NCBI GenBank assembly: GCA_039090665.1 | Contig: JAWCSL010000003.1 | Coordinates: 1-63,499, forward strand | DNA length: 63,499 nucleotides | Source of the DNA: Candidatus Aenigmatarchaeota archaeon | GTDB lineage: Archaea; Aenigmatarchaeota; Aenigmatarchaeia; CG10238-14; SCSR01 | Direction of reading: 5' to 3' | Part shown: piece by piece, positions 30,001 to 36,000 of the stretch | Layout: every line of letters begins with the position of its first letter | How positions within the stretch are numbered: the stretch's first letter is position 1 | Position numbers: made by a program

Positions 30001-33000
30001 ATTATGTTTTGGCACCACCAACCACAACCACCACAACTTTACCATGCTTACCAAGGCTTAGCTCTTGCACTTCAAATGAGCAGTGTTGCTCAGGCTATTG
30101 CAGAAGAATAAGCTCTAACAGAAGCATTTGTTGGTGAAGATGAAAAAGCTTTGTTGTTTTGATTTTCAGAGGAATTCTAGAGAATTTACTTGCTGACAAG
30201 GAAAAAATTTTTTATTTAAATTTCATCAGTTAAATAACCTTCTTTTTTGCTTGGGTTTACAAATAAAGATAATTTTGTTTCTGCAAGAAAATCCAATCCC
30301 AAAATAGATATGCTGGAATATATCATGCCTGCTCTTTTCCAAGCCGTTTCAGCAACTTTTAGATTACTAAAATCTATTGATGCCAAATTACCATTAATAT
30401 CTTTGAAGTTAATTTTAACTTTACCTAACTTGAATAGAGCAATTTTTGTTCCACCCATTATCATATAATGATCCAATTGTAAATTTTTTGTCAAAATTCT
30501 GAATTTTGAGGTTGTGAATTCATCAACAAATGTTTCTGGACTACCAGTGTCAACTATAAAAACAACTGGTATACAACGACCAGAAAAATTCACAGTTGCA
30601 ATTACAGATAATCTATTTCCTTCTTTGTTGAAATCTAGCGGTATCTTCAATAAAACCCCGGATTTAATACAAAATTACTGTATTTTTTTCTGGTATAAAA
30701 TACACAAGAATTGTAGTCAAATCTTTTTCTTTTGTTTTGAGTCTATCTCTAAGTTTTTCTATTTCAGTATCATGATCGATAACTTTCCCGTTTTTTATGG
30801 CAATAAATTCATTTTTATATTTCTTTTGTAGTTCTTCATAGTTTTTTCTCACAAGTTCGTCGTTCTTGTCCATTTTTTCTATGAGTTGTAATTGTTTTTG
30901 ACATTCCACAATTTAAATATAAAGGGAGTAATGATTTAAACTTTTTGAATGATTTAATTGAAGTTAGTTCAAATAAAATATTTTGTAACTCCAAGAGTGT
31001 TAAGCTCACAAGAATTAAATTTCCCTAGTCTTTAATTCAACCTTCAGCTATATATTTCTCTTGCATTTCTTATAATCAGTTTCAATTTCTTCTTAGAAAT
31101 TCCAGTCTTTCTTTGCAGCTCATCAACATCTTCCTCCAAGAGTTGCTTTATAGTAACAATTCCGGCATCACCAAGCTTTTGCTCTGTCTTAAAATCAAGA
31201 TTTTTCAGTAAGGTTATTGGGTAAAGCTTTTTCTCTTCTATCATGTCTTCAAGACCAGCATCTGCAGGTGCTTTCCACCCAATGTAATCTATTCCCTTGC
31301 ACTCAGCATAAATCAAAGCATGGTCAGAAAATTTCGTGTTGCAGATTACCAAAGCTTTTGAAAAATTGTAGCCATGTCTTCCAAGCTTGAAACCCTCCTT
31401 CAAATCTTCCAGCCTTGCTTGTGTTTCAAGCATGACATCAACTCCAGTGTAAGTGTGAGGTTGAAAGTGGTGCTTGACTTCGACAAAAAAAGTTTCAGTA
31501 CCACGAATTGCAATAGCATCCACTTCATGTGTTATACACTTTCCAGGAACAAGCAAATTCGTTTGTACAGAATAACCATACTCTTTCAAAAGCAAAGCGA
31601 CAAAAATCTCAAAATCTGGTTTTGGTCTTAACCTGCTTATAGCTTCTCTCAAATCTATTCTGTGCTTGAGTTCAGGCTTGAAATCTTTTAGGTAAGTGAA
31701 GATCATCTTCAAGATTTTTTTGGTCGGTATTCCATCGTAAACCTCTTTTTCAATTTTGTTGGCAACAGCTTGGGCTTGCTCCAAGCTAGCATGAAGCCTT
31801 AAACAAGTGTTTATGATTTTGCTCTTGTCGAAAGGCTGTCTTCTTCCGTCAAACTTTGTAACAAAAACCATTTCAATTCTTTTTAAAATTTTGGATTTTG
31901 TGTAAAAAATATTTAAGTTATTTTAGCCAACAAAATAACAAATATGGCCAAATTTTCACAAGAAGCCCTAAAACTAATTTTGCGGTATGGTATGGGATGC
32001 ATTCCTGAAGAAAAAAGGGAGAAAGCAAAAGAGGCTATCTTTGAAAACTGTACAGAAGAACTTGTGAAGGAATTGCTGCCAGAAGCATGCCAAAATTTGG
32101 AAGCTCTTGTGCCAAATGAAATAAAAGAAAATCATGTGAGAAAATATTTTTTAGATCTACACACAAAAATAGCAAGTATAACTGAGAAGATGAATTGCAC
32201 AGCTTTCAAAGCTAAAATCATCAAGTCTTACGGCGATGAGTGTGTAGTAGTTTACAACAACAGAACAGAAAAAGTTAAGTGTTTAGAAAAATTTGATGTT
32301 GGCGATGTGGTTATAGTGCATCGTAGCTATGTGGTTGAAAAATATGATGAAAATCTACACGCTTGGCAATCCTTTGTTGAAAAAAGATAGGTTGGCTCTT
32401 GAAGTAGCAGAAGAGCTTAAAAACAAACTGGAAGTCGAGTTTGTGGAATTCGATCCAATAGAAACAATTGAAGGTGATGTTTGGTTAATGGATGTGGTCA
32501 AAGGAGTAAAAGATGTGGAATTGATAACTGAAGACCATTTTGAGAAAAACAAAGTTTATTCAATGCACGATTTAGACTTATCACACATGCTTGCTCTTTT
32601 GAAAAAGACAGGAAAAATAAAAAGCTTTAAACTGATAGCAATTCCTTTTGGAATGAAGAAAAAAGAAGCAGCAAAGAAAGTGGAGAGATTGCTCAAATCT
32701 TTATCCATTTAATCTTAAGGAAGTGACTTGCACAGCTGAAGCAAGGATCATAAGCCCTTATCAACCTTTCAATAGCATGCTGCATTTCATGTTTGTCTTT
32801 TCCTTCATCCAGAAGCTTTTGAACCAAATCTTTTATATCTTTTTCCATCTGTATCTGGTTTTGGGCAGTCGGTATTATGAAATTCGCATACTTGACTTTA
32901 CCTTCTTCATTCAAATAGACCATGTGATACAATGTGCCGCGCGGTGCTTCAACCACACCTATCCCTTCAGTTGCTTTAACTGAAATTTTTGGCAAATCTT

Positions 33001-36000
33001 CTTGCTTGAAACTAAAGTTTTCGAATATTGATATACAAGAATCTATCGAGTGCAATATTTCTATCGCTTGAGCAAGATTGTTGTCGTAAATGTTGTGAGA
33101 AGGAAACCTTTCCAAGATATTTCCAACACTTTTTATTGTTTTCGGATGTAAAGCTACTTTGTTGAGATTCAGTCTAGCCAAGGCACCAACCATGTATTCT
33201 TTACCTTCAAACTGAAAGCTTGTTGCTTGTGAATAAGGTATGACAACACGGTCAACAAAATCAGCAAAATTTTCTTCAGGGATTACAGTCCCTTCAAAAG
33301 TTCTTATTTCGCCTTCTATGAAGTTGAAGCTTGGGCTACAGAGTGCCACATAATTTCTTTCTTTTTCAAAACTCAATTTACATTTAGCCAATATATCTAT
33401 TAGCTCTAGAGCTTTTTTCCTCACATTTTTCAATTTGCTTACGGCTTCTTCTATTTCTTCTTCAGATGGAACTCTTGAAAAACCACCAATTCTCACTTCA
33501 GTTGGATGCACAGCCCTGCCGCCTATAATTTTGCACACAAAGTTTCCAGCATCTTTGACATCAAAAGCATCTTTTATCAAGTTTGGTTGCTCGTCTGAAA
33601 GCTCAAGCAAAGAATCTTTTTCAAAGATATCTGGAAGAGTGAAAAAATAAAGATGCATGGCATGGTCTCTTATCATTAAGCCAAACGCTAAAAGCTTCTT
33701 CATCACCATCGCTTGTTCACTAACTCTCACCCTCAAGCCTTTCTCTAAAGCTTCTGTTGATGCAAGAACATGTGCTATACTACATGTTCCACAAATTCTA
33801 GAAACGAATTGAGGCACAGCCAAATATTCTTTCTTTCTAGTTGCTTGTGTGAAAAATCTCTTGTTTTCTGCAACTTTCAGTTTAACATCTTTAACTTTTC
33901 CTCCAGAAACTTCTACTTCTAACTTAGCATGTCCTTCTGTCTTGCTTATCTTCTCTATTCCTATTTGGAAATCAGTGTGCATTCAAAACACCAAACTCTT
34001 TCAGATATTTTTCAATCACAGCTATCATTTTATCTTCCAGCATAGGGCATCCAGGTACTTCTTCATCTATTTTTACTAAATTTTTTGGAGCAATCGCTTT
34101 TTCCATATGTCCAAATTTCTTCATGATAGGTTTTATCTCTTCCATTTCTTCCTTATCCAAGAAATTCCTTGCATTTGAAGGCGAGCCAGTGATAGCACAA
34201 CTACCAACTGCCACAACCTTCTTGCTCACTTTCCTTATCTTTTCAAGTAACTTTTTTTCTTTTTCAGTAGAGATAACACCTTCTACAAAAGCTACATCTA
34301 TTTCAGAAAGTTCTTCTCTTGTTTGGATTAAACGAAAAGCTTTGAAATCTATCAAATCTTTCCATTCCCTATATTTTTTGTTCAATAGTTCCAAGAAGCT
34401 TATGCTACAGCCTTCATCACATGTGAAAGAAATGAATGCAATTTCTAACCTTTTCATATTTAATTTTTTACTTCTCTATTTTATTTCTTTTGAGTCAATC
34501 TTATCAATTTTTAAAGCTAAATTTATTCTATGAATCCGAAAGCCTTACTTGAGGCTGCCCTTTTTGTTTCTGATAAGCCTTTAAGCGTAGAAAAGCTTTC
34601 GAAAATTCTGAACATAAGTTCTGAAGAAGTGAAAAAGTTTCTGCTTAAGATTCAAACTGAGCTTCAGCAAGAAGACCATGGTATAGAGCTTGTGGAAACT
34701 CCAGAAGGTTTTGAGCTAAGGGTGAAACAAGAATATAGAGAAAAAGTTGCTAAACTTGCTCCTTTTGCTGATTTGAGCGATGGTATGATGAGGACTTTAG
34801 CGATAGTTGCTGCCAAGCAGCCTATAAAGCAATCTATAATTGTGAAAATTCAAGGAAACAAAGCTTACGGTTACATTGCTAGCTTGGAAGAAAAAGGTTT
34901 GATAAAGAGTGAAAAATTTGGAAGGACAAAGCTTCTCTCAACTACTTCAGACTTTGAAAAATATTTCGGCAAGAGCAGCGAGGAGATAAAGAGGATTTTG
35001 AGCGAAGCTGAGAAGAAAGCTTAAATCTTTTCTTTTTAAGTAAAAATCATGTTAGAAGAGTTAAGAAAGGGTTTTTTTTGATATTGATATATCCTTTACC
35101 AACTTTGTTTTTGCTAGTTTATGCTGGAAAAGAAAAAGCGATAAATATTTTGAAAGAGCATTCAGACACATACTATCAATTTTATAGGAGCAACAGACTG
35201 AGAGGATATGGGATAAAAACTTCTGTAGAAAGATCGATAGCTGGTTATGGTTGCTTCAAAGGCTTTAGAGCTAAACAAATAGATAAGGTTGGGATTCTTC
35301 ACCACTTGATTTAAGAAATTAATTTTGCTTAAGCCAACTTATTATCATGAGCAAAAAATGGTACGAGCGCTATCATTGGTTTTTCTCGAGCAACAACATT
35401 TTGGTTATCCTTGGCAAAAATTCAAGAAATGATGAAACCATTCTCAAAAGATATACAAGACCACAAGACTTGGTTTTACATTCAGATTTGAAATCAAATT
35501 TCGCTGTGATAAGAAATGATTCTGCTCAAGTTTTACCAGCAGAAACAATTTATGAAGCTGCTGTTTTTCTTGCTTGTTACTCAGAAGCTTGGGATAAAAA
35601 GCTGGAGAAAGAGCAAGTTAGTGTTTTTTATGTCAAGCCTGAGCAAGTTAAGAAGCAAGAAGGAACAAAAGGGGTTTTTGAAATTATTGGAGAAAAGAAA
35701 TATCTGGAAAAAATTGAACCAAGGCTTTCTATTGGAATAAAACAAGAAGAAGTTTTTAACGCCAAGCTAATTTATGGTCCACCCACAGCAGTTAAAGCTC
35801 ACACTCCTTATTTAGTAACTCTTGTTCCAGGCGATACTCAAGCTAAAGCTTTGGCTGAAGAAATAAAGAGAGAATTGTTGCTAAAAGTTTGTCCTGAAAT
35901 TTCAAAAGCTACTGAAGAAATAGAACTGAAAGAAATAGAGAAGATAATTCCTTTCAAGAAAGGCGAGCTTGTTAAGCTTTAAATTTTTATTTTGATAACA

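Follow-up and report, generated by a model that had tools for sequence, protein, structure and literature searches.

How might a [NiFe]-hydrogenase be assembled in a cell that seems to lack the genes for building its metal centre? The question is raised by a cassette of four ORFs that spans positions 31944-34457 in a genome of Candidatus Aenigmatarchaeota archaeon (G000), a tiny archaeon from a hot spring. The window, i.e. the whole stretch of 63,499 nucleotides that was analysed (G000:C9:1-63499), has the same coordinates as the contig. To our knowledge, every system studied needs HypD, HypE and HypF to make the Fe(CN)2CO unit. We give about an even chance to the reading that the cassette encodes a working minimal hydrogenase that would be matured without these three proteins, with a DUF6390-like protein acting as scaffold.

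Structure of the locus and its insertion site

The initial annotation placed a compact two-subunit [NiFe]-type hydrogenase with intact metal-ligand cysteines at this site, which is borne out by the reading frames, the PF00374 match and the motifs. The genes for the large subunit (429 aa, 32693..33982) and the small subunit (161 aa, 33972..34457) are both on the reverse strand and overlap by 11 nt. The two remaining genes, on the forward strand, encode a DUF6390-like/HypC-like protein (148 aa, 31944..32390) and a predicted HybD/HycI-type maturation endopeptidase (127 aa as called, 32329..32712); the true start of the latter is probably near 32344-32347, because its homologues begin at MKIY. The weak likeness of these two small genes to HypC and HycI that had been noted stands, as matches below cut-off, but their description as upstream genes does not: they are on the opposite strand and run convergently towards the large-subunit gene, whose 3' end overlaps that of the endopeptidase gene by 20 nt.

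The whole cassette forms a 2.6-kb presence/absence block (31900..34505, unstranded), flanked on the left by an AF1548-like/ATP-cone gene (31044-31871) and on the right by scpB (34530-35024). The site is empty in the congeners G081, G082, G080 and G084, where the flanking genes are 88-702 bp apart with no hydrogenase genes between them. The left junction is spanned by contigs from two runs of other studies (X8 record 13, X9 record 22). Within the order, PF00374 is found in 38 of 117 genomes, correcting an earlier count of 36, whereas the earlier figures of 12 of the 34 high-quality genomes and none of the 7 other members of the genus are unchanged.

Absence from all 7 of these relatives, together with insertion between housekeeping genes, might indicate a recently acquired and decaying passenger without function. 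We consider this highly unlikely, given that all four frames are intact and that pN is far below pS in each pair tested, among them the G000 cassette versus that of G039. All four kinds of gene are under purifying selection (pN 0.05-0.36, saturated pS 0.6-0.8), and near-identical copies of the cassette are present in hot-spring runs of 5 studies (2017-2024), 2 of which carry no mark as a potential origin of the DNA analysed here. The same gene order is found in a CPR bacterium (L067), whose large subunit is 51% identical.

The hydrogenase subunits

The large subunit matches PF00374 at 9.6e-30; its best NCBIfam model, sulfhyd_ShyA, gives 277 bits, far from the cut-off of 700 bits. Both Ni-binding cysteine pairs and the nine-residue tail claimed for it are present, as RIC64GTC67, DPC414FSC417ASH420 and the sequence FLKIKWIKI after H420, and the motifs EAPRG and PTAQN can also be recognized. 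In the alignment with 17 relatives, C64, G65, C67, D412, P413, C414, C417 and H420 are invariant, as are EAPRG and P371-x-x-Q374-N375, while T372 is found in at least 90% of rows. In solved hydrogenases, EAPRG and PTAQN-type motifs line the pocket of the diatomic ligands. Among solved chains, the nearest are T. kodakarensis HyhL (5yxy, 7.4e-62) and the P. furiosus SHI alpha subunit (phmmer against chain 9nez_D, 2.7e-61).

A two-subunit, group 3b-related clade termed hyd2 is known from CPR bacteria (Jaffe 2020, BMC Biol 18:69; PMC7304191). In our tree, which does not include the sequences of that paper itself, the large subunit falls within a clade of 34 sequences (SH-aLRT 100), 19 from DPANN archaea and 15 from CPR, and the 15 CPR sequences show hyd2 features.

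The small subunit (Oxidored_q6, 5.5e-20) aligns with residues 3-140 of the 261-aa delta subunit of P. furiosus SHI, and the domain for the medial and distal clusters is missing. It had been described as very short with only four cysteines, and exactly four are read, at positions 13, 17, 87 and 137, which would be enough for one proximal [4Fe-4S] cluster. Among the 45 small subunits aligned, Cys87 is kept in all and Cys137 in 44, and in hyd2-type members the first pair has the spacing CC or Cx3C. As stated before, no dedicated redox partner subunit is encoded within the cassette, and a gamma-subunit homologue was not found in G000 by tblastn. A flavoprotein of the ferredoxin-NAD reductase type lies directly upstream in 7 of 15 CPR hyd2 loci.

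Absence of Hyp maturation genes

G000 (90.6% complete, 15 contigs) was searched for targeted families. HypD gave no match even at E<=10, and all that the hypF model picked up was a TsaD/Kae1 protein, at 27 bits. The 121 bits of the hypE model (cut-off 251.6) belong to an AIRS paralogue that ends in ...EILKIFE and, as had been noticed, has no C-terminal Cys of the HypE kind; HypA (9.4 bits) and HypB (11.7 bits) were not detected. Profile searches thus agree with the initial annotation on the lack of HypD and HypF, in this genome and across the order, where HypD is over cut-off in 2 of 117 genomes (G048, G018), zf-HYPF in 3 and a true HypE is found in 2. Neither HypD carrier is of high quality, so HypD is missing from all 12 high-quality hydrogenase genomes; the only hydrogenase genome of the order with HypD (1 of 38) is G048, where the contig that bears it also encodes a different large subunit, of 488 aa. 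Among 301 CPR genomes, PF00374 is present in 74 and HypD in 12, all within those 74, and HypF in 11, all among the 12 with HypD.

Hyp genes might be present yet have escaped detection, either because they are extremely divergent or because the metagenome genomes are incomplete or mis-binned; neither G000 nor most of its relatives (70-95%) are complete. This seems very improbable in view of the lack of HypD from 37 of 38 hydrogenase genomes of the order and 62 of 74 of the CPR sample, and of six-frame searches that reach 420-490 bits where HypD exists. The mutual exclusion of HypD and DUF6390 in the CPR sample (see next section) is also a pattern that would not arise from random gaps. The method does recover HypD where it exists: besides the 12 CPR genomes, it detected the gene in one Lentimicrobiaceae control and in 4 of the 14 named controls.

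The endopeptidase and the DUF6390-like protein

The 127-aa protein is under cut-off for both TIGR00072 (3e-6) and PF01750 (HycI, 2.7e-3) and has no sequence-level match in the PDB. Judged by the fold of its AF2 model (pLDDT 79.5), it is a real maturation endopeptidase: each of the best 10 Foldseek matches is a hydrogenase maturation protease (5ija, with E 1.7e-4 and TM 0.63; 1cfz; 2e85). G13, N14, D20, D55, H80 and D83 are invariant among 17 homologues, and the gene adjoins that of the large subunit in at least 19 of 21 loci of the order. In known systems, cleavage of the tail by the endopeptidase is a nickel-dependent proofreading step; tail and dedicated endopeptidase are retained throughout the hyd2 clade.

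The 148-aa protein matches HupF_HypC (PF01455) from residue 85 at 6.2e-5 and 23.5 bits (cut-off 28.5). Its AF2 model (pLDDT 90.5) has a helical domain at residues 6-80, with invariant Y15, C19, Y68 and H73 and no clear structural match, and a HypC beta-barrel at residues 87-133, with invariant C85 and H126. In structure, the C-terminal domain resembles HypC 2z1c/3vyt, at E 1.2e-4 and with 51 residues superposed at an rmsd of 1.0 A. A comparison of the family with 7 CPR DUF6390 proteins by hhalign gave a probability of 97.3% and an E of 1.9e-11; the protein itself is under the Pfam cut-offs for DUF6390 and HypC, and the link to DUF6390 thus depends on this profile-profile match and on relatives. 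The HypC-like gene is better described as a shortened DUF6390 relative in which a HypC fold follows a helical domain, a description that is new here. CPR DUF6390 has a His-rich insert of about 70 residues at its centre that the DPANN form lacks, so the two forms may differ in their job. A short canonical HypC is absent from G000, though paired with the long form in many relatives; in G043 and G095 the long form is fused to the endopeptidase.

The distribution of this family follows that of the hydrogenase, although the genomes counted are related, so that the numbers overstate independence: its profile (A2) is found in 32 of 38 hydrogenase genomes of the order versus 0 of 79 others, and DUF6390 (PF19927) in 44 of 301 CPR genomes, i.e. 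42 of 74 with hydrogenase versus 2 of 227 without. It is present within 10 of 15 fetched CPR hyd2 loci and never alongside HypD in the CPR sample (42 versus 12 genomes, overlap 0). Neither the family nor HypD is found in 6 of 38 order and 20 of 74 CPR hydrogenase genomes, which suggests that the family is not universally needed or is often unassembled.

The hydrogenase fold and cysteines might have been kept without a NiFe(CN)2CO centre, the enzyme binding Ni or Fe alone in some other redox or sensing role. This would fit the absence of HypD, HypE and HypF, the low score against curated 3b equivalogs and the odd spacing of the first small-subunit Cys pair, but it seems improbable, since EAPRG and P371-x-x-Q374-N375 are invariant beyond the four Cys, the tail and its endopeptidase persist across hyd2, and a HypC-fold partner is retained with Cys and His equivalents.

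CPR bacteria are described as largely symbiotic and host-dependent. The same is said of DPANN archaea by Greening et al. (2024, Cell 187:3357; PMC11216029), and genomes of the order are about 0.3-1.7 Mb. A symbiont might thus need its host for maturation, the host cell supplying the iron-carbonyl-cyanide unit ready-made, its precursor or the Hyp proteins themselves, while the DUF6390-like protein would do no more than receive and deliver the unit. An EamA-family transporter follows DUF6390 in 5 CPR loci (L093, L096, L097, L098, L112) and is fused to it in one database protein (P0241), a hint of small-molecule transport. However, no homologue of the CPR-type EamA was found in G000 by tblastn, and we know of no transport of an iron-carbonyl-cyanide cofactor. 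Moreover, the 12 CPR genomes with HypD, 11 of them with HypF, are of similar size, so host supply is not a general rule of this lifestyle, and we regard it as unlikely here.

A putative route of maturation

We suggest that the four genes make up a portable and self-contained unit, which encodes a cytosolic [NiFe]-type hydrogenase of minimal form that belongs to the hyd2 clade. The DUF6390-like protein would be both iron-cofactor scaffold and chaperone, replacing the HypC-HypD complex, and from it the large subunit would receive its iron unit. Insertion of nickel, without HypA and HypB, would follow, after which the endopeptidase would cleave behind His420, releasing FLKIKWIKI and allowing the heterodimer to close. 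The single cluster could exchange electrons with a soluble carrier, either a ferredoxin or a flavoprotein encoded elsewhere. An unstudied protein family may thus stand in for maturases thought essential to metal-centre assembly.

Comparison with known systems

For the 148-aa protein the closest known system is HypC, or the HypC-HypD scaffold, of canonical [NiFe] maturation (PDB 2z1c, 3vyr-3vyu), and its C-terminal domain superposes on HypC. C85 occupies the profile position of HypC Cys2, and H126 is probably the counterpart of HypC His51. Unlike the N-terminal Cys of canonical HypC, this Cys is internal, preceded by an 80-residue helical domain with an invariant Cys and His of its own, and the HypD partner is absent. 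The endopeptidase shares its fold with HybD/HycI enzymes (PDB 5ija, 1cfz, 2e85), and its invariant D20, D55 and H80 probably correspond to the metal triad of HybD; it is shorter (about 122-127 versus 148-162 aa) and under cut-off in Pfam and NCBIfam.

Known group 3b enzymes (sulfhydrogenases and NADP-coupled hydrogenases) form heterotetramers that contain beta and gamma subunits along with a delta subunit of three clusters, in hosts with HypA-F. They include the closest solved large subunits (P. furiosus SHI, T. kodakarensis HyhL; PDB 9nez, 5yxy; E about 1e-61), which are of equal length (428 aa) and share the L1/L2, EAPRG and PTA-N motifs, and the G000 small subunit aligns with the first 140 residues of delta. 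The G000 enzyme differs in having one cluster and no Hyp proteins, and does not reach the NCBIfam equivalog cut-offs.

A like puzzle is posed by archaeal [FeFe] hydrogenases of genome-reduced archaea without HydEFG, where a hydrogenase is encoded and the known maturases apparently are not (PMC11216029). Those enzymes belong to another superfamily and were active there after artificial maturation.

The enzyme type itself is not new, as the cassette matches hyd2 in sequence features. The truncated hyd2 small subunit averages 164 aa (161 aa in G000), adjacent beta and gamma genes are lacking and a hypC-like family is nearby in both, and a PF07992 flavoprotein is found near some members, as in the present CPR loci (PMC7304191). 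The main text of that paper does not contain the word 'maturation', and the lack of HypD, HypE and HypF, the endopeptidase and DUF6390 are not reported in it. The hyd2 clades are presented there as CPR-specific, whereas DPANN archaea contribute 19 of the 34 members of the present clade.

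Organization and genomic setting of the cassette

The two hydrogenase subunit genes lie on the minus strand, with the large subunit (429 aa, 32693-33982) overlapping that for the small subunit (161 aa, 33972-34457) by 11 nt. The 148-aa HypC-like gene (31944-32390) and the 127-aa endopeptidase gene (32329-32712) are on the plus strand. The initial annotation placed these two small genes upstream of the hydrogenase; they lie beside it on the opposite strand and converge on the subunit genes. The family matches that it listed, strong and weak alike, were reproduced with Pfam and NCBIfam.

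The flanking genes are of housekeeping type (scpB, scpA, smc, bacA), plus a subtilase. In four genomes of the same genus, the distance from an AF1548-like gene to scpB is 88-702 bp, compared with 2.6 kb in the genome studied here (G000), where the gap holds precisely the four cassette genes. None of the genus's 7 other genomes has PF00374, as previously noted. Near-identical copies of the cassette occur in hot-spring metagenome runs from five studies, of which two carry no mark as a potential origin of this DNA, and the left junction is spanned by contigs of two of these runs, each from another study. A second variable block (28858-30909) adjoins the cassette: of the three congener regions that reach far enough, only that of G080 contains a counterpart of its subtilase gene (28935-30137), and the two small genes that follow (30216-30909) have a match in none of the three.

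For the large subunit, small subunit, protease and long HypC-like protein, pN (0.05-0.36) was far below a saturated pS (0.6-0.8) in every pair tested. Decay of the cassette is strongly disfavoured.

The large subunit

The large subunit exceeds the Pfam gathering threshold of PF00374 (104.4 bits, cut-off 25.8), and its nearest solved relatives are HyhL of T. kodakarensis and the SHI alpha subunit of P. furiosus (E about 1e-61, full length). Both metal-ligand motifs, RIC64GTC67 and DPC414FSC417ASH420, are intact and invariant in 17 relatives, and His420 is followed by the 9-residue tail described earlier (FLKIKWIKI). EAPRG and PTAQN motifs are also present, their columns being invariant in the 17 relatives save A373, which is variable, and T372, kept in at least 90% of rows; the roles of the CN-pocket residues we take to be those in the literature. 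The large subunit may carry a NiFe(CN)2CO centre and turn over H2. A non-canonical metal site is a less likely alternative.

The NCBIfam equivalog cut-offs for group 3b were missed (ShyA, 277.5 bits versus 700; HydA, 223.5 versus 880), and the alpha-beta-gamma-delta make-up of that group, with a three-cluster small subunit, is not found here. The claim that no partner subunits are encoded stood for the cassette and, in the case of the gamma subunit, for the whole of G000, in which tblastn found no homologue.

At least three types of large subunit with intact cysteines occur in the order: that of hyd2 (one of two 3b-related clades, hyd1 and hyd2, of CPR bacteria), a 3b-like type that is more complete and has a gamma subunit (genomes G097 and G010), and a 385-aa type with DPCFSCMER. 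Group-4-like large subunits of 381-397 aa, with RICGIC, DPCFSCMER and a tail of about 25 residues, are found in another family of the order (loci L031-L033, genomes G004-G009 and G021-G023). HypD is absent from these genomes too, and full-length long HypC-like forms are found in 7 of the 9, G007 having a fragment and G009 none.

The small subunit and possible electron partners

The small subunit is short, as initially described, with four Cys in all, and its alignment to the P. furiosus SHI delta subunit (261 aa) is confined to the N-terminal 140 residues of the latter. In small subunits of the hyd2 clade the first two cluster Cys are adjacent (CC) or spaced as Cx3C, whereas the spacing is CxxC in small subunits of the hyd1 type and in those of solved 3b enzymes.

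A flavoprotein of the ferredoxin-NAD reductase type is encoded directly upstream in 7 of 15 CPR hyd2 loci; tblastn with the CPR type found none in G000 at E<1e-2. Of 21 loci of the order, 8 have a thioredoxin reductase (neighbour cluster c4) close to the hydrogenase. It was rejected as a hydrogenase subunit, the G000 copy being on another contig (C15) and a bona fide thioredoxin reductase (TIGR01292, 357 bits, cut-off 343); as an electron partner it is possible.

Other neighbours are found in relatives. The c5 family (190-212 aa), which neither Pfam nor NCBIfam matches and in which C, SHN and YF(T/V)xH motifs are conserved, occurs in 7 loci of the order (L046:7635-8210, L051:7953-8573, L053:10642-11265, L055:4414-5052, L057:7642-8262, L063:7404-7976, L065:6197-6772), where it either immediately precedes the small subunit or separates the long HypC-like gene from that of the protease. 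In four loci of genus g36 (L047-L049, L054), a CorA-family divalent-cation transporter is encoded directly upstream of the small-subunit gene, with an acylphosphatase gene nearby; Ni or Co can be transported by relatives of CorA. No homologue of c5 or of the acylphosphatase, CorA and NMNAT-like neighbours was found in G000.

The 148-aa HypC-like protein

The likeness of this protein to HypC was reported as weak and below the Pfam cut-off, and so it is by score (PF01455, 23.5 bits versus 28.5); PF01455 nevertheless matches 9 of 10 family members (best 2.9e-8). A model built with 10 relatives (pLDDT 90.5) comprises a helical domain (residues 6-80) and a beta-barrel (residues 87-133) with the predicted OB-type fold of HypC/HupF. 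The barrel superposes on HypC (2z1c_B, E 1.2e-4; 3vyt_A, rmsd 1.0 Å over 51 residues; VIA Z 5.3), and Foldseek and VIA searches with the whole-protein model gave no clear structural match for the helical domain. The equivalent of the Cys at position 2 of mature HypC is internal here: it is C85, which occupies the profile position of HypC Cys2 and is preceded by an 84-residue extension conserved in genome G039 and database protein P0121. Y15, C19, Y68, H73, C85 and H126 are invariant family-wide; the residue roles of HypC Cys2 and His51 are presumably as in the literature. Many relatives encode, in addition, a short HypC of canonical form, 54-72 aa long and beginning with MC[LIM]A..., which is absent from G000.

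PF19927 (DUF6390) matches neither the 148-aa protein nor anything else in G000. It does match 4 of 10 DPANN relatives (best 1.6e-6), and hhalign against seven full-length CPR DUF6390 proteins gave 97.3% probability (E 1.9e-11, 149 columns) across both domains. These profile comparisons point to homology with DUF6390 over both domains, the DPANN form being devoid of the central His-rich insert (~70 residues) of the CPR proteins. Since the 148-aa protein, searched against 1.84 billion representatives, had 5 matches only, the family alignment was taken from loci of the order. DUF6390 has at least 2,343 database clusters, every named one of them CPR and labelled 'DUF6390 family protein' or hypothetical, and a literature search for 'DUF6390' returned no paper. 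In two genomes of the order the long HypC-like/DUF6390-like protein and the endopeptidase are fused in single ORFs (L051:10312-11151 in G043, 279 aa; L052:10084-10896 in G095, 270 aa).

The 127-aa endopeptidase

The 127-aa protein is below curated cut-offs (PF01750, 18 bits versus 23; TIGR00072, 27.3 versus 47.45), so that the weak HycI likeness first noted holds by score, and PDB sequence searches, single and profile, gave nothing significant. Its identity was established by a fold search: with a model built from 17 homologues (pLDDT 79.5), the ten best Foldseek matches were all hydrogenase maturation endopeptidases (HybD and HycI of T. kodakarensis and E. coli, and others). G13, N14, D20, D55, H80 and D83 are invariant, and D20, D55 and H80 probably match the acidic/acidic/His triad of HybD. 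By its predicted fold, the protein is a genuine maturation protease, though a short one.

Absence of Hyp genes

All [NiFe] hydrogenases are generally considered to require HypC, D, E and F. The initial annotation found no HypD or HypF in G000 (620,606 bp, 15 contigs of which the window is C9, 90.57% complete, 0.12% contaminated; close homologues mostly bear the name Aenigmarchaeota), and searches with targeted family models agree. No HypD was found even at E<=10, the hypF model finds only the TsaD/Kae1 protein, and the hypE model finds only an AIRS paralogue that lacks the C-terminal Cys, as was noted before. HypA and HypB, earlier checked only in the Pfam table, gave nothing above 12 bits. 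The canonical Hyp system (HypD, HypE, HypF, HypA, HypB) is thus absent from the genome as searched.

Two candidates for stand-in maturases were rejected. TsaD/Kae1 as a split HypF has a generic 27-bit match only. The HypE-like AIRS protein (G000:C8:5579-6583) does not track the hydrogenase; it occurs in only 4 of the 117 genomes of the order, one case being the true HypE of genome G048 (27% identity). HypE, ThiL and SelD models score this protein (L004:1405-2412) equally, at about 96-122 bits and all below cut-off, and it is flanked by two paralogous genes (257 and 266 aa).

Across the order, the large subunit is present in 38 of 117 genomes, rather than the 36 first counted, and in 12 of 34 high-quality genomes, as stated. 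HypD exceeds the cut-off in two genomes (G048, G018), in accord with the earlier count, and true HypE is found in the same two; for the HypF zinc finger the 3-4 reported settle at three (G048, G018, G006). In G048, HypE, HypD and HypF share a contig with a different large subunit of 488 aa. With HypD confined to G048 and G018, 37 of the 38 hydrogenase genomes are without it.

In a sample of 301 CPR genomes without quality figures, from the class of the related locus L067, the large subunit occurs in 74, HypD in 12 (all inside the 74) and HypF in 11 (all inside the 12). The searches thus detect Hyp genes in such small genomes when present; that they were missed here, in a genome 90.57% complete, is strongly disfavoured. 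Ten of the 11 CPR HypF proteins (in G153, G165, G198, G218, G278, G316, G358, G396, G414 and G419, all HypD keepers) are ORFs of 374-502 aa that span only model positions ~380-520 to 740, the Kae1-like half, without the acylphosphatase and zinc-finger parts; G359 has the sole full HypF (755 aa). As in the initial literature search, no paper was found stating that CPR or DPANN [NiFe] hydrogenases lack Hyp genes, the search covering literature other than subscription papers and supplements.

Co-occurrence of the accessory family with hydrogenase

The long HypC-like profile matches 32 of 117 genomes of the order, all within the 38 hydrogenase genomes and 0 of the 79 others; about 27 matches are full-length long forms, many of them beside a short HypC and many at a distance from the hydrogenase genes (e.g., G016, G017, G019). 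Among the 301 CPR genomes, PF19927 matches 44, of which 42 are within the 74 hydrogenase genomes, the two outside being one fragment and one contig-edge gene. It is found in 0 of the 12 HypD genomes, and 20 hydrogenase genomes have neither. Fisher tests gave p of about 1e-5 for exclusion and 1e-23 to 1e-28 for association, figures that overstate the case given the lack of independence among related genomes. The accessory family thus tracks the hydrogenase and is mutually exclusive with HypD. Supply of the cofactor by a host is a less likely alternative.

DUF6390 lies inside 10 of 15 fetched CPR hyd2 loci. An EamA-family transporter directly follows it in five CPR loci (L093, L096, L097, L098, L112), and a partial database protein (P0241, 424 aa) combines EamA and DUF6390. 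Seeds of EamA, DUF6390, HypC-HydE and HydG found nothing in G000 at E<1e-2 (tblastn), nor was a BATS domain found.

In one CPR locus (L100:205-3754, G136:C50), two maturase genes lie directly upstream of the genes for a 262-aa small and a 428-aa large [NiFe] subunit: a fusion of a HypC domain with a radical SAM enzyme of the HydE type (TIGR03956, 263.7 bits versus 254.6), and HydG (TIGR03955, 547.8 bits versus 312). These are [FeFe]-hydrogenase maturases inside a [NiFe] operon and, as G136 has neither HypD nor DUF6390, may represent a third maturation route. HydG was not found in four hyd2 genomes lacking DUF6390 (G117, G133, G320, G237).

Proposed maturation and significance

The most economical reading is of a functional minimal hydrogenase that is matured without HypD, E, F, A and B. 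The DUF6390-like protein would help to load the large subunit, which the endopeptidase would then trim. Gene content, conservation, phyletic pattern and folds are established by the data, whereas the role as scaffold, the kind of iron site and the electron partner are inferred. There is continuing debate over where the CO ligand comes from. Tentatively, we suggest that CPR and DPANN might own a second, HypD/E/F-independent route to the [NiFe] site, with a DUF6390-type protein (Cys/His helical domain plus HypC fold), in CPR often paired with EamA, as a single-protein scaffold; the 2.5-kb cassette might then be the smallest known complete gene set.

In about 100 genomes of two domains, hydrogenase genes are under purifying selection without HypC/D/E/F-type maturases, and are accompanied instead by an unstudied family mutually exclusive with HypD. 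Should the enzyme prove active, this cassette of four genes and 2.5 kb would offer a very simple system in which to study or engineer [NiFe] catalysts, DUF6390 would gain a function, and inferences of hydrogen metabolism that rest solely on the large-subunit genes of CPR and DPANN would be on firmer ground; if it is inactive, such inferences need revising. Either way, the question can be tested with one small construct.

Relationship to hyd2 hydrogenases

The large subunit was placed in a quick IQ-TREE tree of 56 rows, built without reference groups of the HydDB type. It groups with DPANN and CPR sequences in a clade of 19 and 15 members respectively (SH-aLRT 100, stem 0.95), which is therefore common to two domains; its CPR rows display hyd2 features, the sequences of Jaffe et al. 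themselves being outside the tree. All members have a tail beginning FL[KRE][VIL]... after the His, followed by W in 32 of 34. In the hyd1-type rows from CPR the His is the last residue, and the fetched loci showed no adjacent protease gene. A search of genome contigs for related loci returned 4 only. The CPR locus L067 (Candidatus Moraniibacteriota) has the identical order of small subunit, large subunit and convergent protease, its large subunit being 51% identical to that described here and 61% to that of genome G020.

Jaffe et al. (2020; PMC7304191) described two CPR clades of 3b-related hydrogenases. Their main text, which nowhere uses the word 'maturation', characterizes hyd2 by a small subunit cut down to 164 aa on average, by the lack of beta and gamma subunits next to it, by a hypC-like family in the vicinity and, for some members, by a PF07992 flavoprotein close by; the function of hyd2 was considered uncertain. 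The cassette shares with hyd2 the truncated small subunit of ~164 aa, the lack of adjacent beta and gamma subunits, and the hypC-like neighbour. The enzyme type is already known, most probably as hyd2, and the clade as recovered here spans DPANN as well, which goes beyond its description in that text as 'specific to the CPR'.
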